Source: Eledone cirrhosa
Taxonomy: Eukaryota
Direction of reading: 5' to 3'
Length of the DNA: 64,000 nucleotides
Assembly (NCBI GenBank): GCA_964016885.1
Contig: OZ024755.1
Location: 10,292,001-10,356,000 of the forward strand
Shown here piece after piece: positions 38,138 to 64,000 of the stretch. Position numbers and translations under genes: made by a program. Below the pieces are notes generated by a model. The model saw only the letters and a program-made list of their open reading frames with translations. It was not told the origin of the DNA and ran no database searches. The first letter of the stretch is position 1. The number at the start of each line of letters is the position of its first letter.

Positions 38138-38186
<49 letters not shown>

Positions 38187-38188
<2 letters not shown>

Positions 38189-38307
38189 CGAAGGAGGTGT
38201 GGTAAGGAATTAGATGGACCATAACGCACCAGAGTACTCAATACTCAATACCCTAAGTATTGAGTACTCTGGTGCCTTATGGTCCATCTGATTCCTTATC
38301 TTTCCTA
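38187..38307. mobile_element. Fold-back palindrome in (TA)n, same family as 63051
   Basis: Arms 38203-38245 and 38256-38298; shares aacgaagga..tgtggtaaggaa..agatggaccataacgcaccagagtactcaata with 63051. Confidence 0.8.
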
Positions 38308-53650: not shown

Positions 53651-54255
53651 CACTGCCCGGGCGTAACTGACCTATGGAACTATGCAGAACAATTTCTGTC
53701 GCGGATGGGACAAATCCAGTTGACTGCCGAGTCCATAGTAAGGATCAAACCGCCAGCCTCTTTCAAAAACGAAAGAGAGGCGGTTTTCCTCTGTACAGTG
53801 GCTATGGTGAAAGAGGTTATATGGTGGACGAGATTGAGAGGACTGAGGACAGATGCCTTTCTCTCCGGACAACAATTGATTCCCTTCTTTAAGTATCACT
53901 TTAGAAGGAGAATCAGAGTGGAGAGAGAGGCACTGCACCCCCAGTAAATTTACTGAAAGGTGGGTGAATGAAGCGAAAATGGCCCGAGTTATTGGGCCTT
54001 CTCTGTTTATAAGCCTGTAGGTTAAAGAAGAGAGCAAAAGGAAGAAGGGAGCACTTGTACAACACGCTCCTGAAGTTGAGGGTTGTTCTATCGACGGGGT
54101 ATTAAACAACCCATTTGTGTCGCTTCCCCTCTATTGGGGATTTCGATTGTTATAATTGTTTGTTTTATATTTTTTACCCGACTGTATGTAAAATCCCCGG
54201 CATGTGTCTTTGTATTGTCCTCTTTTCTTGTGCGCCCTTGTAGAAAATAAAGAAA
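53651..54255 (+). mobile_element. Second, shorter Tx1/L1 3' fragment of a related subfamily
   Basis: AMVKEVIWWTRLRGLRTD..FFKYHFRRRIRVERE; homologous 3'UTR ending aataaagaaa then tcta repeats. Confidence 0.85.
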
Positions 54256-55050
54256 TATATCTATCTATCTCTCTGTGTAACTATCTACCTACCTATCTAT
54301 GTACCTACCTATCTATCTATCCATCTATCTATGTCGGTTTCTTCCGGCTTTATCCGTTGCTGGATCATTCTCCAGATACAACTGGTACTCATTTTCAGCT
54401 GAGTGAACTGGAGCAATGTGAAATTGACGTGCTCAAAGACACAACACTTCAGTCGGTTCAAGAATCGAACCTACCACTTTACGATTGTCAGTCCAACACC
54501 CTAACCATTAGGCCTCAGGTCTTCAAAACTTCTAAAGAGTTTCCCCTCAAAACGCTACTCCCAGGCCCATCATTATCAAAGACCGTGAATTGTCAGATAG
54601 GTTAGAAAAGAGAGTTAAATACTTTAGTCTTGTACTTTCTGAGTTCAAATCTAGGGAATGTACACTTTGATTTCTATACTGAACATAAACATGGGTCGTT
54701 ATATATGTGTATATATGTGTATTGAGTTGTAGAATACTCACACACACACACACAAACACACACATATATATATGTATATAGCAAAGAAAGTGTGGTAACG
54801 ACCGGAGCTCAACCGTTGGGATCCTAACTCTTTTCCTAAAGCAACAACACACACATACATACATAATACATATATATATATATATATAGATATATATACA
54901 CATACACATATATATATATATTGCAACTGAGAGTATATATGTGTGCTGAGTGTGTATATATGAGTCCAATAACACAATGTTGGCTTGGCAACCCGCCGGA
55001 AGGTTATTTTCGTTTTACGTTATTTCATTGTTATAATATATATATATATA

Positions 55051-55165
<115 letters not shown>

Positions 55166-55179
55166 ATAAATATATGTGC

Positions 55180-55221
<42 letters not shown>

Positions 55222-55235
55222 ATAAATATATGTGC

Positions 55236-55300
<65 letters not shown>

Positions 55301-55617
55301 TTAGTTGTTTTAGTCAACCGTTTGTTTATGCTACAATTGAATCTCACTGAGTCATACTTTGTAATTAGTCTATACTATTGTTTCAGTAGTGTTAGTATAT
55401 ATGTGTGTATATGCATATATATATATATGTGTGTGTGTGAGTATATGTGCGAGTGTGTGTGGAGGTGATTAAATAAATCATTGAACGTTTTTTGTTCTTA
55501 TTCAAAACTATAACAATTTCATATATATGTGTATGTGTGCTTCTATTTATGTGTGTGCGTGTGTGTGTGAGAGTATATATATAAATGTGTGTATGTATGT
55601 ATATCAGTCAATATATG

Positions 55618-55685
<68 letters not shown>

Positions 55686-56549
55686 ATGTAAGGAAATTCG
55701 TCACCAAATGACAATCCGAGGCTTTAGTGGAAGACATTTGTCCAATGTGATGTGCAGCAAGCCGAACCCAGAACCACGTGGTTATGGTAACGAAACGAAC
55801 TCCTTAACGACACAGTCATGCCTGCACCTATATTTGATTCATTACTAAGATGTTAACTTAACAGATGGTTTTTATATTGGAAGATTTTTAGAAAAACCTT
55901 GTAAAAAGTTATTAATCCAAGACCTTCAAAAATAATTTACAAATTATGTATGCATTGTTTTGAATCCCATGCTGAGTTCTTTGAATGGTAATCAAGCTAA
56001 TGGCAGCGTTATATCAAAAGGGTTGAACTAATTTAATTAAAAAGTAAAAATTAAAATAAAATAAAATATAAAACGAAAGAAAAAAATAAGGAAGAAATGG
56101 GGGAAGGGGAAAACTGTACAGCCTCCGTTGTGACCCACGAACAAGATCGTATAAGCGTTGCCGCGGAGAATAGCCAGTGATATCCACTCTATCAGTCATT
56201 CTACCTCGGGCAGAGTTCCTTCCATCCTTTTATATGTCATCATTCGATGTGTTAGATATAGTAGTCAAATACCCTCAAATCATACTCAACACTATTTTTA
56301 AAGATAAATGTAAAGGACACACCAAACAATGTAGTCCAAGGTACACCTAAACAGGAAGGATGGCCAATTCTGGAGTGCCTGATTATGGGTGTGTCTAATC
56401 TGAGATGACTCTGTGGTTACACAACAACAACAGCTCCATACATTAATAAATAAATGATTGAAAACTATCTTTTTTCCTTCTTATTCGTACTCACGTTTAA
56501 TAGATATATACACACACACACACACATATATATACACACACACACACAC

Positions 56550-56594
<45 letters not shown>

Positions 56595-56627
56595 CACACA
56601 CACACATATATACACACACACACACAT

Positions 56628-56660
<33 letters not shown>

Positions 56661-56679
56661 CACATACATACATATATAT

Positions 56680-56776
56680 CGGAATACAAAAAACAACAAC
56701 GCAGGAGTACAAGTTACAAATAGTATTAGTTTCGCGCTTAGTGAGAGTGGGGTGTGTGGGTGCGACGTTTCGGGCA
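56680..56776 (-). mobile_element. Penelope-like pLTR fragment (family of 265-378)
   Basis: Shares attagtttc.cgct...cgacgtttcgggc; truncated within hammerhead stem II by a microsatellite. Confidence 0.55.
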
Positions 56777-56777
56777 T

Positions 56778-56846
<69 letters not shown>

Positions 56847-57342
56847 CATATATATACATACACATATAAAGTCCTATCTATACATCTATATATGCGTCTG
56901 TCTATATATATATATATGTGTGTGTGTGTGAGTATGTATGTATATATGTATGTATAATTACACACACACACACACACACACACGGATATAAATTATTGAA
57001 AGGTGACCCTTAAAGGACTAATTCTGTTTCATCTACAAGAACAACCCCCCTGAATTAATGACTAAATAATTGAACCCAACTAACCAGTTTCCTGTCAACA
57101 GAACACCGCTGGGAGAAACCCTATAAATAAGACAAATACGATGTTAATACTTGAAAAGTGGAATAATTATCTTGCAGATCAAATTCATTAATCGCTTAAT
57201 TAGTTTAATCTCTTAATGAAGTTTTTTATAGCTTATGTGATTTGGTCGACCAGAGATCAAATAGCCAAACCCTAGCGATAATCTCTCTCTCTCTCTCTTT
57301 TTCTTTTTCATATATATATATATATATTTATATATTATATTA

Positions 57343-57374
<32 letters not shown>

Positions 57375-57384
57375 TATATTATAT

Positions 57385-57446
<62 letters not shown>

Positions 57447-57473
57447 TATATTATATATATATACCTATAAGCT

Positions 57474-57535
<62 letters not shown>

Positions 57536-58005
57536 TAGATAGAGGGGGGGGGAGGAGAGTGAGAGGGTGAGAGAGAGAGGGAGAAGGGGATTATCATTAA
57601 GGATTGACTGTTTTGACCTGTAGAGCAGTCCCTTTTCAATGGACAATGACCTCATTGGGGTGAACACCACCCATCAAATATGGAGTTATTTCGTATGAAG
57701 CTTCAATATATACACACCCTACATTCCTACATTCAGGCATATCTGTTTACAATCGTAATCCGAACATTACAGGTGCTGTATACATATTGATTTCTGATTT
57801 AGGTACAAGATCAGAAAACTTAGGAGAAGGGCAAAATTCATTAAATCAATCCCAGTCCCAGTAATTAATTGGTTCTTTATTTTACCGACCCCCGGAAAGG
57901 TGATTTGAACTCAGATTATAAAGAGTCGGAACAAATACCCCAATGTCATTTTATCAGACGCTCTACCAATTATGCTAATCCAACATTTTTAGTGCGGTGT
58001 ACATA

Positions 58006-58314
58006 CGAGTGTCGGCTGAAAGGTTGATAAGCGGACCAAGATACTCTCATGGAATGACCAAACGAGATTTATTTTTCAACATAGTTCCTAGAAAGAAACA
58101 ATGCGGTTATTAATAAGAGGAGTTGAAATTAATGCATGCAAGATTTCACAGCTCTAGCGTGACTCCTTCATAGTCAGCTTATGAACTTTTCAGCCCTCTG
58201 TACAGAAAAAAATCCATTTATTAATAAGAAGAGTTGATATTAATGCATGCAAGATTTCACAGCCCTAGCATCAATCCTTCATAGTCCGCTTATGACCTTT
58301 TCAACATAACCTCG
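58006..58314. mobile_element. Mariner-derived MITE with duplicated right end
   Basis: TA-cgagtgtcggctgaaaggttgataagcggac ... gtccgcttatgaccttttcaacataacctcg-TA; segment 58108-58200 repeated at 58218-58314. Confidence 0.75.
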
Positions 58315-58627
58315 TATTAGAAACACACACAGACACACAAACACACACACACACACACACACATTACTGGAAGCTGATAGCTTTATTTAATAGTTACTCC
58401 AGGTTTCATGTCTCCAATGAATGTCATTACAGGATTATTAATTATTTTATAGATTTTTGAGCAATGAAAATCAGAATTGACCTTGCTGGAATTTGAACTC
58501 AGAACATAAAAGATGGTAGCTAATCCCTTCCTCCTAAAATAGAATACGAACTTATGGTGTGTGTGTATGTGTGTGTGTGTCTCTGTGAGTGTGTGTGTGT
58601 GAGTGTGTGTGTGTGTGATTTAGTCTA

Positions 58628-59225
58628 GTGGATTGGCAGTATCGGTGTTAACCGCCGAGGTTAACTTTGTCTTTCATCCTTATGGGGTCGATAAAATAAA
58701 ATACCAGTAATGTACTGGGTAATTGCTGGCTTTGTGCCAAAAGTAGAAACAATTATTGTGTTCATGACAAAAGGCATTGGATTGACAGTATTGGTAGAGG
58801 GTCGGACGCCATGCTTTGCAGCATAGAGTTACATCCCTTTACGATCTGAGTTCAAATCTCGCTGAGGGTAACTTTGTCTTTCATCCTTACGAGGTCGATA
58901 AAATAAAGTATCAAACACGCACTGGGGTCGATTTTATCGACTTTCCCCTCCCCCAAAATTGCTGGCCTTGTGCCTATATAAGAAACAATTATAGTGTTCA
59001 TGACGAAAGGCAGTGGATTGGCAGTAATCGGTAGAGCGTCGTACGACATGCTTTGTGGCATATAATTACATCCCTTTACATTCTAGGTTCGAATCCCGCC
59101 GAGGTGAGCTTTGCCTTTCATCCTTACGAGGTCGATAAAATGAAGTACCAGTAATGCACTGAGGTAGATTTAATCGACTTTCCCCTCCTCCCAAAATTGT
59201 TGGCCTTGTGCCTAAACCAGAAGCA
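58628..59225 (+). mobile_element. Three tandem Deu/Nin-like SINEs
   Basis: Three cores separated by the repeated spacer gtgttcatgac.aaaggca. Confidence 0.85.
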
Positions 59226-60206
59226 ATATATCAAAAAGAAATTTGACAAAAGGTTACAATGCGTTCTTGAAACGTATTGTAGAAATTTCAGTGTGGGTAC
59301 AATTTCACCAATGAATAGAAATAAAATCACAGCAAAAAATCCAAACTTTTAACCGGAAAAATAAAAAACCGGAATATTTCACTGTTTTTTTTTTTTATTT
59401 CTGATTTCCTATATCTTTATATATATAAGTTTCCGCTGTTTTACAAAAAAATCAACTTTTTGTTATGGTGTTTAAAAAAAAATGTGAGGTTTTTTCCCGG
59501 ATTCAATTCCCAATATGGTCCGCTAATTTGGTATGAACAAATGACTGGTTTCACCCGGTTAAGACCAACCGAGGAATGTTTCTATTGCTAAGTCTCCCGT
59601 GAATGGAATTTACCCTCCGATGGTGAGGTCATTAAAAGGGTCAAGTCCGCTGTGAAGTATAAGTTTCTTTTGAATTTCATGGAAAAAACTAATTATTTTC
59701 TTTTCGTATTTGCTGTTCATTTTTGTCTGAATGTTATCTTTTCGTGCTAAAGGGTCCTAGAAATTGTATGTACATTAAAACCAGCGAATATAATATTATG
59801 TATGTCCCGGGAAATTTGTTTGGTAATTTGATAGGAGAAGAAGTTTTACTGGTGGAATGTAAAAGGTCAAGAGGTGAACTCCTTTTTCGGGAGCTGTAAA
59901 ATAAAACTGATTTATTTCACACACACAGGTGAATGAAATAAAGAGGCATATATCTAATGTTGATAATATTTCTGCTTGACTGTTCATAATAAGTGGTATC
60001 AGTAAGGTGGTGTTTGGAAAAAAAAAAAGGAGCCATGTCGATGCTCATGCCTTCCATAAGGTATTTAACCCTTTTGATACCAATCTGCCCAAAACCACCT
60101 CCGTGAAATAGAACCACTAATTTTAAAGAGTTTCTATTTATGTTAAAACATTCCCCTATAATTTTATATAAGAACCATTTAAGTTACAAATGCCATCTTA
60201 ATAATG

Positions 60207-60810
60207 GTTTCTTATATAGGCACAAGGCCAGTAATTTGGGGGAGGGGAAAGTCGATTAAATCGACCCCAGTACGTTACTGGTGCTTTATTTTATCGACTC
60301 CGTAAGGATGGAAGGCAAAGTTAACCTCGGCGGGATTTGAACTCAGATCATAAAGGGCCGTAACTCTACGCTGCAAAGCATGGTGTCCGACTCTACCACT
60401 CCACCGCCCTAAATGCCATCTTAATAATGATTTCTACTTTAGACACATGGGAGGGCAATGTCAAATCCTTCGTTCTCAGTACATGAACTTTATTTGTAAC
60501 TTTATTTTATCGACCCTAGAAGGATGGAAAGCAAAGCTAACCTCGGTGGGATTTGAACTCAGAACGTAAAGGTTGGTTTCTAATTTAGGCCCAATGCCAG
60601 CAATTTTGGTGCGAACGGTGGTGGAATAGAGAAAACGTCAATGATATCAACTCCAGTATTTCACTGATACTTTATTTTATTAACTTCTGAAGGATGAAAA
60701 CCAAAATTAACTGGGCAGTGAGAGGGTGCGATTTTAATCTTTGTGGAGCGAAGATTTTACCCTAGAACGTAATGAACCGAACCAAATACCAGAAGTTATT
60801 TCGATCTTTG
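60207..60810 (-). mobile_element. Three Deu/Nin-like SINEs; the first is near full length with TSD
   Basis: aaatgccatcttaataatg flanks 60207-60410. Confidence 0.85.
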
Positions 60811-61176
60811 CTCAAATGATTCTGTCAGTCAACAGTCTTAACCACCTTTTTTTCTTTTTTTAAATAATTACAACAATAAGCTGTGACATGGCGGATGTAA
60901 ATTCAAATGAATTTTGCTCAACGGGGATTTCTGTGTGGTTTATAATTTCTTGCTTGACTATTTTTATTAACTGTCAAAATTCTGACAACTTCATTCTCAG
61001 TGTCTAGCATTGATTTCAACAATAACAATGGCTCAGAGGCAAATCTATATTTAACTGGAAAAAAAAAGAATGCAACTGAATAACCCAACCAACCAGCCAG
61101 TCAGGCAAATCTTAAAAACTTTGATACATGATGTTAACAACAGTAATATCATGACACATTTTTACACACACACACC

Positions 61177-61209
<33 letters not shown>

Positions 61210-61236
61210 GAATAAATATATGTATATATATATATA

Positions 61237-61311
61237 TTGGCGATAAGTCATCGACAGGGACTTACACTGTTTCAACCCCCTACCGACAGTAATGTTTGTC
61301 CAGCCGGAGTT
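61237..61311 (-). ncRNA. Partial hammerhead ribozyme (stem II, GAAA, stem III, GUC); CUGANGA missing
   Basis: Minus strand: aactcc..ggggtt GAAA cag-tgtaagtcc-ctg TC; bounded by microsatellites. Confidence 0.45.
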
Positions 61312-61321
61312 ACACACACAA

Positions 61322-61360
<39 letters not shown>

Positions 61361-61522
61361 CGTGCTTTTAGAAAAAGATCTTTTTTCGGTTCTTTCTTTT
61401 AACACTATCTTTCTATTTCCTCTCTTATTTCTCATTATATTTTCCGAAACGAAACGTAAGACACTTTTCCTACTTTATCAAGCATTAAACTAATTGCTTT
61501 GTTGTTTCCGTTTACTTTTCGA

Positions 61523-61585
<63 letters not shown>

Positions 61586-61714
61586 AAGAAGAAGCCACCC
61601 CCCACCGTCAGTCACAAATGACTATGGTTTTGCACCTAGAAAGTTTCCCTCACAACCTCACCATTGCAGGCCCAACGCTCTAACCACTGAGCCATATATA
61701 TATATATATAATAA

Positions 61715-61905
61715 ATTTTGTTTCTACTTTTGGCACAAGGCCAGCAATTACCCCAGCGCATTACTGGTACTTTATTTTATCGACCCCGTAAGGATGAAAA
61801 GCAAAGTTAACCTCGGCGGGATTTGAACTCAGAACGCAAAGGGCCGTAACTCTATGCTTCAAAGCATGGCGTCTAACTTAACCGATACTGCCAATCCACC
61901 GCCCA
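61715..61905 (-). mobile_element. Deu/Nin-like SINE
   Basis: Head, core and tail present; atatataataaat flanks. Confidence 0.85.
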
Positions 61906-61952
61906 TATATAATAAATAATATATATATATCATTTTTATATTATATAAATAA

Positions 61953-62056
<104 letters not shown>

Positions 62057-62274
62057 AGAGATTCTTTATTATGGTTGCCTTGTTGCTCTACAGTTTGACT
62101 TGTGTAGTCATAGGATCAGTATTTTGTCTGATATCGCAGTGTGTAAGTGTGAACACAGGTGAAACTCCAGAGAAACAGGACACACCACTTAGTCATAGTG
62201 GGAGAGGGAGTGAGGAAAATATCAAATTACCATTTCCTTGTCAAACCTACCAGAAAGTGGTTGTCACCTGATCA

Positions 62275-62455
62275 TGTGCTTATTTGAGGGTCGTGAGGGA
62301 AGAGTTCTCAAACACTCCTTCCAGCGGGTCCTGTCAGAAGCAACCGTTTCCAACTGATCTGACTGTATCCCCAGGCGAGACCATCGACGCTCACGGATGT
62401 TATCCAACCATCTTGCTCGGGGTTTACCCCTGGGTCTCCTGCAGATTGGTTTTTC
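62275..62455 (-). mobile_element. RTE-clade LINE 3' fragment
   Basis: RRPRGKPRARWLDNIRERRWSRLGIQSDQLETVASDRTRWKECLRTLPSRP. Confidence 0.8.
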
Positions 62456-62970
62456 CAAGAAGACACTTGCCCAAGGTAAACCCAGAAACTTATAGTTGAG
62501 AAGCGAAGTCCTTAACCACCCAGCCATAAATGAAACATTTTTTTTTTTAAGTCTGTGGCCGAAACACGGGTGTTTATCAGGCTGGTGCTAAGAAGAAGAA
62601 GAAGAAGGAGAAGAAGAAGAAATCAACTATCTTCAGTCTTCAGGCCTGGAGATGAGAAGAAATCCGGCAGGTTTAAAGTGTCCAAGACATGTGTGTAACG
62701 ATAGCGCCCCTACGACACCACGAGGGGTTAAGGATTCACGAGGATGATGATTTGGCAATATCTATTTATATATATATAAAAAAAACCACTTGGTTCTCTA
62801 CAAATATTTTCACTGTCATGGTCACCCCACTACCCTACCATTTCCTCTCTTCTCTCTTCCTTTCCTGGCTTATTTAGATGACATATGACTTGGTTGGAAT
62901 GTGACTGGCTCTTATCTGTCTGTCGGACTGTCTATCTGTCTGTCTGTCTGTAATGCTAACTACCAACTAG

Positions 62971-63050
<80 letters not shown>

Positions 63051-63052
<2 letters not shown>

Positions 63053-63253
63053 CGAAGGAATTGTGGTAAGGAACCAGATGGACCATAACGCACCAGAGTA
63101 CTCAATAGTTAGGGTAGTAGAGTGGGTAATAGGAAAAGGTATGACCCCGACGGCAGAGCTCAAGCCGTTTCGACGGCTATTTCTGGACTGAAATAGTCGT
63201 CCAGAAATAGCCGTAGAAACGGCTTGAACTCTGCCGTAGGGGTCATACCTTTT

Positions 63254-63258
<5 letters not shown>
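63051..63258. mobile_element. Fold-back element with hammerhead half-cores on both strands, in (TA)n
   Basis: 60-bp arms 63129-63188 and 63199-63258; GAAA cggc-loop-gccg TC/TA on each strand. Confidence 0.75.
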
Positions 63259-63339
<81 letters not shown>

Positions 63340-63430
63340 TACAAAGCCTTTGATTTCTGACACGCACGCATGCACACATGCGCGCGGGAACACGTGCACG
63401 CACGCACTTATCTCTCTATACATACATACA

Positions 63431-64000
63431 TGATGGCTGCCAACTCGTTTTCGAGTACGACCATTACTTTATATCCATATAGGAGAACCCCTACCGATGC
63501 GCTGAACGAGTGTGACTTTTTAGTCCAGCCAGCGACTTGAAAACTCTGGTACAAACACTACACTTGTGACAATTATTGACACATAGTGCTAGGGCCATGG
63601 TACCATGTGACGACAAGTGCAGAGAGATCTCCAGATATAAAGCAATGCCTGTGCCGTGAAGCTTTTATAGTGAGTAAAGGCACTGCACAAAGCCAGTCCC
63701 ACTCTGTTAACCAAGATGATATTTACCAAAAAGAAGAACAAGTCAACATCATTGGATACCATCATACATACAAATATGCATACATACATACAAATATACA
63801 TACATACGGGTTATATACCAACCCGCTTGGACCAAAATATGACTGAACTTGGATTTGCGGACAAAGAGCGCAGCTCCCCTAATTCATAGTCTGCAAATGG
63901 TTGCGATAGTTGGCACTTTCAAAATTTGCAAAACATTCTTGCGATTCAAGGGATGACAATTTCTTTTCCTTTACAACCTTGCACCAGGAAGGTGGCCGGT
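63431..64000. mobile_element. Second copy of the RTE 3' end (-) plus REL-LINE 3' end (+) composite
   Basis: 63431-63763 matches 8015-8346 (CSVCTRVFKSLAGLKSHTRSAHR*); 63805-64000 matches 8811-9003. Confidence 0.85.

Follow-up and report, generated by a model that had tools for sequence, protein, structure and literature searches.

How does a nearly perfect palindrome carrying half of a ribozyme on each arm come to lie in a (TA)n run? The question is raised by a 207-base palindrome, flanked on both sides by (TA)n runs, in the window, which is the whole 64,000-nucleotide (nt) stretch of Eledone cirrhosa DNA analysed here. Our study of the genome-wide family to which it belongs suggests an answer that we consider probable: the palindrome comprises two 5′-truncated pseudo-LTR (pLTR) ends that meet head to head within (TA)n and were likely made as separate cDNAs, each of which ran off the likely capped 5′ end of the element's RNA. 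The element family, its parent open reading frame (ORF), the geometry of the arms, a boundary at −40 and an extra C:G pair at the junction are established directly; the events that would have produced them are reconstructed from these observations. Throughout, positions are numbered from the hammerhead cleavage nucleotide C17 (0 = 63149, minus strand).

Half a hammerhead on each arm

A 130-bp near-perfect hairpin in (TA)n had been described in the first-pass annotation, and it is plainly there: 63129–63258 folds at −120.7 kcal/mol (z −16.2), none of 200 shuffled sequences folds as well, and 63051–63128 forms an unpaired 78-nt extension of the hairpin. As the annotation said, GAAA, a stem III (CGGC/GCCG), GUC and then GGGGUC can be read on the minus arm; on the plus arm the triplet is GUA. 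The arms differ at 3 of 59 positions (63215, 63228 and 63238) and, because all three differences sit in the plus arm, its GUA is a mutated GUC; the C11.1 position is altered there as well as C17. Both arms hold the 3′ half of a hammerhead (GAAA, stem III, NUH and GGGG) and both are missing the 5′ half, so that a complete type I core with its 5′ box and three stems is found on neither arm of the window copy. The 12-bp stem II that had been drawn here dissolves on comparison with the family, since its 5′ arm consists of the 9-nt junction filler together with the start of the opposite arm, and long copies possess a genuine stem II 5′ strand of another sequence. The features are collected in Table 1.

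Table 1. Features of the palindrome and its (TA)n flanks, in window coordinates
Feature	Position	Strand	Basis or remark
(TA)n target, left flank	62972..63051	.	sequence
Long (tailed) arm, pLTR −40 to +98	63051..63189	-	pLTR of tandem element L062 matched at 91% across 151 nt
Tail, about 78 nt, on one arm only, between two putative RT start sites	63051..63128	-	75/80 head-to-head pairs one-sided
3′ half of hammerhead only	63145..63182	-	stem I 5′ strand, UUGANAA and stem II 5′ strand missing
Stem II 3′ strand	63182-63172	-	
GAAA	63171-63168	-	
Stem III	63167-63150	-	
C17	63149	-	
Stem I 3′ strand GGGG	63148-63145	-	
Arm start AGTCC	63185..63189	-	A at 63189 = −40 = putative RNA 5′ end, within TTAGT of long copies
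Junction filler GAAATAGTC, nearby element sequence re-copied	63190..63198	.	
Short (tail-less) arm, −39 to +19	63199..63257	+	three substitutions, one being C17 to A
(TA)n target, right flank	63256..63303	.	first TA common to arm end

A second stub of the same family lies in (TA)n at 38182–38298 of the window; its tailed arm is cut off inside the tail, and the short partner is joined head to head at an internal GAGTACTC palindrome. Another short interspersed repeat, with copies 74–91% alike, is found in the window at 60248–60397, 60499–60572, 60634–60711 and 61734–61883.

A coding Penelope-like element as the parent

Searching the 3.0-Gb genome with 63051–63200 gave 825 first-look candidates, and the inverted arm was present as well in 35 of the 40 that were scored. 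A 42-mer from the arm has 5,851 exact genome matches (reversed control, 0), and a 37-mer from a sister family, hereafter family 2, has 1,312. Some copies run on upstream into an ORF with GIY-YIG and reverse transcriptase (RT) domains. One of these, L062, is organized as pLTR–ORF–pLTR with 3,093 bp between its cores and an extra inverted copy in front. The broken copies L061, L062 and L063 each have a single ORF in which RT is followed by a C-terminal GIY-YIG domain, an order shown by tblastn of the homologs P0002 and P0005, with domain labels that rest on motifs identified by eye. Pfam returned no family in three ORF fragments and one sub-cut-off RVT_1 match among four homologs, and a PDB sequence search of the ORF fragments gave no match.

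The CxCX5C linker reads CNCPDRSTC in L032, L034 and L057, and CxxC and CxH surround the conserved E and N (CNLCSEE...LLNKKDELVTACKH). The DKG position is DKP in L061 and VKT in L062, the RWK position is RWR in L061, and the homologs have DK[TS] in 51/52 and RW[KR] in 38/52. (TA)n targets and pLTRs are present, and the 3,093-bp unit is a little over the ‘generally <3 kb’ published for the Hydra clade, of which CxCX5C, CxxC/CxH, DKT instead of DKG, RWK, (TA)n and a short unit are described features (PMC8557442). Judged by its protein motifs, the family is a Penelope-like element (PLE) of Hydra-clade type; Neptune and Naiad were dropped on linker motif and domain order. The palindrome is an insertion stub of this coding PLE, not a retrozyme. 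The earlier idea of an undescribed retrozyme or PLE lineage, for which a linked RT/GIY-YIG ORF was to be looked for, is right about the PLE, and the long copies contain the ORF; it is wrong about the retrozyme, and the clade had already been described, including an octopus family (PMC8557442).

Other elements lie around the long copies. L065 (490–2957), L067 and L068 contain different PLE families, one with RT plus GIY-YIG in two long frames and others with Hydra-like motifs, which are nested beside the long copies together with LINE and LTR-type fragments.

A predicted variant hammerhead in the parent pLTR

Long copies contain, in order, ACCCC, TTGANAA, G-TT-CGGCTATTT, a 36-nt loop region, AAATAGCCG-T-C, GAAA, stem III, GTC and GGGG. 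The parent pLTR is thus predicted from sequence to have a complete type I hammerhead layout with a U3–A8 variant core, UUGANAA, and the long-stem layout with stem I pairing to GGGG that had been anticipated for the family is supported there. The core itself is not the one anticipated. A pattern admitting both core types has 773 matches (control, 0) and, among the 100 listed, TTGANAA accounts for 95, CTGANAA for 4, TTGANGA for 1 and CTGANGA, which was expected directly before gacgactatttc in full copies, for 0. Among distinct long copies, 70/77 have TTGANAA, with position 7 varying freely. Nor is the box lost exactly where the inversion starts, as had been supposed: in long copies it lies at −85 to −79, and the inversion point, at −40, comes about 45 nt further downstream. 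Family 2 keeps the same core with stem II changed on both sides.

Support for the hammerhead fold is moderate. Stem cells are paired in 92% of cases, compared with 32–56% in slid controls, and a three-way junction fold is obtained for 2/5 copies (z −3.0 and −2.4) and not for the other three. Covariation, with only 3 pairs showing two-sided change and 179/500 shuffles scoring as high, is not significant alone. Hammerhead models, proposed at first pass as a check, gave no Rfam match: none among 141 matches at E ≤ 10 for window positions 54000–64000, and none at the gathering score in three long copies. The CAGCT mismatch in stem II, an apparent majority, reflects query bias, and most copies have CGGCT. 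Family 1, the family of the window copy, has a TATA-like TATTTAT 31 nt before −40; family 2 has none, and we therefore do not claim the motif as a TATA box.

Individual copies show further changes in this region. Arms of L027, L061, L090 and L216 seemingly lack stem III through a 19-nt deletion between two GCCGTC direct repeats. L272 has several private substitutions that are common to both arms and damage the ribozyme half, which suggests either that a degenerate source copy was mobilised in trans or that one arm converted the other.

Most arms end around a single base in loop II

The geometry of the stubs was examined in 117 loci, made up of the 30 best matches and 87 taken in order along contig C1. 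They include 80 head-to-head pairs within 120 nt, with the tail on one arm in 75, on neither in 3 and on both in 2. The tailed arm extends to +98 and the tail-less arm to +19. At their other ends, 159 arms from the 87 loci (one contig, with one arm required to reach −34 and ungapped extension) stop between −47 and −33 in 132 cases, further upstream in 16 and further downstream in 11. Arms most often end on the A of TTAGT (−40), a base of hammerhead loop II, and the boundary of family 2 falls in the same register. TTAGT resembles TCAKTY, the initiator consensus. Summed depth of three contig sets from one study drops about 20-fold across −40; this is a poor measure and is not used as support.

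Could the RNA have been cleaved by its own ribozyme before being copied? Only 1/186 tailed arms starts at the cleavage site (+1), indicating that cleaved RNA was rarely the template, and we rejected it as the general source of the arms.

An alternative that accepts insertion of two cDNAs, and that we regard as unlikely, is that −40 marks a point where RNA structure stops RT or where the RNA is processed, and not a capped transcription start. In every subfamily, loop II can be drawn with a small hairpin that includes TTAG (by folding in family 1 and by eye in the others); this hairpin overlaps −43 to −37 in family 1 and, as modelled, could stop RT. However, the modal arm end lies inside this hairpin rather than at its base, and TTAGT is invariant in 20 aligned long copies whereas its pairing partner varies. 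The same alternative would explain the extra base described below as plain terminal addition, and the junction sequences bear on this.

Junctions are heterogeneous, and identical junctions are found with different arm variants. A related 5-nt filler recurs in other copies. At L020, L077, L152 and window 63190–63198, the filler consists of repeated re-copies of the template's first 11–13 nt, with up to three rounds in L020, as though RT had aligned anew to a short terminal repeat and resumed extension, in a way that recalls the addition of repeats by telomerase.

An extra C:G pair where the arms meet

Both arms are complete to −40, with a spacer of 0–4 nt, at 443 loci of family 1. In the first 50 of these, single inserts are C:G in 24/25, where the genomic neighbour is T, and three-base inserts are C-N-G in 5/8. 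The first 50 of 63 such loci in family 2 give 28/30 and 6/10, respectively. In these spectra, which were counted by hand, C:G makes up 52/55 single inserts across the two families. The extra C belongs to either arm. Of 22 orientable loci of family 1 (24 fetched), 12 have it on the tailed arm and 10 on the short one; the 9 of family 2 (16 fetched) divide 3 to 6 in the same order, which makes 15 tailed and 16 short among all 31 orientable loci (40 fetched).

RT is able to add C at any template end, and terminal addition of this kind is what the structural-stop alternative would invoke. In 23 cases an arm begins at −40 with no partner stem close by; the base before it is T in 12, C in 6, G in 4 and A in 1. 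Since G precedes only 4/23 of these, any cap signal is confined to arm-to-arm junctions, and the missing G excess favours the structural stop. The near-uniform C:G of single inserts in two families argues against it. For L1, an untemplated 5′ G has been read as a signature of the cap (PMC9341517), and the extra C:G of the stubs is consistent with our preferred reading, in which both cDNAs ran to a capped RNA end.

One cDNA or two

The first-pass annotation had proposed that the inversion arises in (TA)n by fold-back at stem II. Insertion in (TA)n holds; the fold-back does not, because the tail-less arm often reaches further upstream than the tailed one. In its fuller form, in which a single cDNA or antisense template turns near stem II and copies itself (compare PMC3846280, where self-priming is the published proposal for such junctions), with centres that later flip by arm recombination, we consider this explanation improbable. 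It requires the short arm to lie within the tailed arm, as only the tailed arm could be the copied first strand. In 53 ordered short pairs, parsed automatically with a few junctions misread (for example, L126 and L148), the short arm reaches further upstream in 20, the tailed arm in 21 and the two equally far in 12. The short arm is again the longer upstream in 14/20 of the six-base centres fetched (of 50 listed and 1,445 in the genome) and, by 117–959 nt, in 5/9 distinct long pairs. If recombination later inverted the centre, the short pairs could come to look like this, but the long asymmetric pairs could not. In addition, spacers are 0–2 nt in 36/50 listed both-complete junctions, a pattern itself limited to spacers of 0–4 nt, and such short spacers leave no room for a priming loop; the extra C is found as often on one arm as on the other; and the parent has no stem II of the kind proposed.

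What fold-back would readily accommodate is the likeness between arms, along with the recurrent filler that copies nearby sequence. Source variants at +9 to +15 are shared by both arms in 16 cases vs 21 on a single arm (67 of 75 pairs usable), where permutation gives a mean of 1.3 and 0/2000 permutations reach the observed value. A second concordance test is weaker, with 7 shared vs 47 single (15/2000; 11 of 22 pairs usable). Sharing so far above chance indicates that both arms usually derive from one source copy; it would also fit fold-back or later conversion between arms.

Separate cDNAs, the reading that we prefer, have a biochemical precedent. In vitro, the Poseidon PLE cuts and extends both strands, and its RT starts at two internal sites that bound the tail, on a template of uncleaved RNA (PMC11167929). 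The two-strand extension and paired start sites provide the precedent for two-ended priming, and the low use of cleavage-site starts in our family agrees with the uncleaved template.

Is the palindrome itself copied?

It is very improbable that the palindrome is itself copied as a unit, as a retrozyme or another short non-autonomous element with a working ribozyme of its own. The high copy number, the single junction register common to 1,445 loci and pairs such as L272, with private, degenerate variants on both arms, would fit such a unit. Against it, the stubs are without the 5′ half of the core, their junctions vary, with the same junction joined to different arm variants, there are no tandem monomers at the locus, and starts at the cleavage site are nearly absent. 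Tandem non-coding monomers each with a complete hammerhead were not encountered for this family.

We give almost no credence to the boundary being a 3′ splice site from which arms copied spliced RNA, a possibility raised by TTTAG at −43 to −39, a donor-like CAG/G(T/C)AAGT about 185 nt upstream and the D. virilis Penelope intron that ends at helix I (PMC4209133), and rejected for genomic copies because the predicted junction 19-mer has 13 genome matches and the upstream exon follows in 0/10 of those inspected. No genomic copy spliced from the donor-like site to the AG at −39 was found. Donor-like CAG/GTAAGT or CAG/GCAAGT occurs in the pLTRs of L021, L050 and L023, about 185 nt upstream of −40.

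Relation to described elements

The Hydra-clade, endonuclease-positive (EN+) PLEs described by Craig et al. 2021 (PMC8557442), such as Hydra-1_Obim and Penelope-13_HM, share with the Eledone family the order of RT and C-terminal GIY-YIG, CxCX5C, CxxC/CxH around E and N, (TA)n targets and a hammerhead in the pLTR; Penelope-13_HM also has an inverted 5′-truncated copy. The Eledone unit, at 3,093 bp, compares with under 3 kb in the clade, and its minimal stubs far outnumber long copies; clade placement here is by motifs rather than by a tree. The hammerheads differ more. Those of Hydra elements in File S2 of that paper have CTGANGA-type cores and a loop II of 3–10 nt, compared with UUGANAA, a 36-nt loop II region and a 9-nt loop III in Eledone, and the octopus Hydra-clade family in the supplement has a different, CTGANGA-type hammerhead. 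The U3–A8 variant is instead known from Cercyon PLEs of Schistosoma (Cervera and de la Pena 2014, PMC4209133). Their hammerhead also has U3–A8 for C3–G8, type I topology, a long helix II and a short helix I; unlike it, the Eledone ribozyme would have a helix III with a 5-pair stem and loop rather than a minimal one, and a helix II with a long structured loop.

Head-to-head inverted pLTRs, one-sided tails and (TA)n targeting have been published (PMC8557442, PMC3846280), and the described PLE architecture (these papers and PMC11167929), with two fixed 3′ ends that correspond to RT starts, is the same here. The tail is about 78 nt rather than 30–40, and the piling of 5′ ends at one base with an extra C:G does not appear in the available parts of those descriptions. 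A search of largely open-access literature, Repbase aside, returned neither a PLE start site placed inside a hammerhead nor PLE junctions with bases derived from a cap. The non-LTR retrozymes of animals (bioRxiv 10.64898/2026.07.22.740005) resemble the stubs in being PLE-related and non-coding with a type I hammerhead. They are described as tandem units with complete ribozymes; the stub has neither and is truncated from the pLTR of a coding element.

A model for two-armed stubs

In the model that we favour, transcription would begin inside hammerhead loop II, on the A of TTAGT (−40); an internal pLTR promoter has been described for Penelope (PMC2377424). Given that start, the RNA would begin with the 3′ half of the ribozyme, followed by both priming sites and then the ORF. 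In L062 about 230 nt separate −40 from the start of the ORF, which would make the template the 5′ leader of an ordinary mRNA, one without the 5′ half of the core. The GIY-YIG domain would cut both (TA)n strands, and each 3′ end would prime RT at +19/20 or +98, two fixed positions within the RNA, usually with one source copy supplying the RNA for both. Each cDNA would then run 60 or 140 nt to the end of the RNA, often gaining a C opposite the cap, and the cDNA ends would be joined with 0–6 nt of microhomology, trimming or filler. The rarer long arms, which include the whole hammerhead, would come from priming in the 3′ pLTR instead.

A more far-reaching version, which we put forward tentatively and regard as possible though doubtful as a whole, assigns a role to the ribozyme. 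A capped mRNA that starts in loop II of its own hammerhead could not self-cleave at its 5′ end and could do so in its 3′ pLTR, where cleavage would remove the downstream priming sites, so that just those at the 5′ end would be left. The ribozyme would then be a switch that diverts RT into thousands of abortive two-armed stubs, and C-N-G would represent two caps.

The element class, architecture and U3–A8 core are already published, and what this family offers is therefore insight into mechanism rather than a novel type of element. The origin of the head-to-head inverted ends of PLEs and the role of their hammerheads are open questions according to PMC8557442, PMC3846280 and PMC11167929. Thousands of natural junctions in the Eledone family favour two-ended priming over self-priming, and they place the predicted transcription start at a single base within the ribozyme; this base-precise boundary, together with the symmetric C:G signature, gives the family its added interest. 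If transcription does start in loop II and cleavage in the 3′ pLTR acts as a switch, the stubs would record in the genome both twin priming and the site at which transcription begins.
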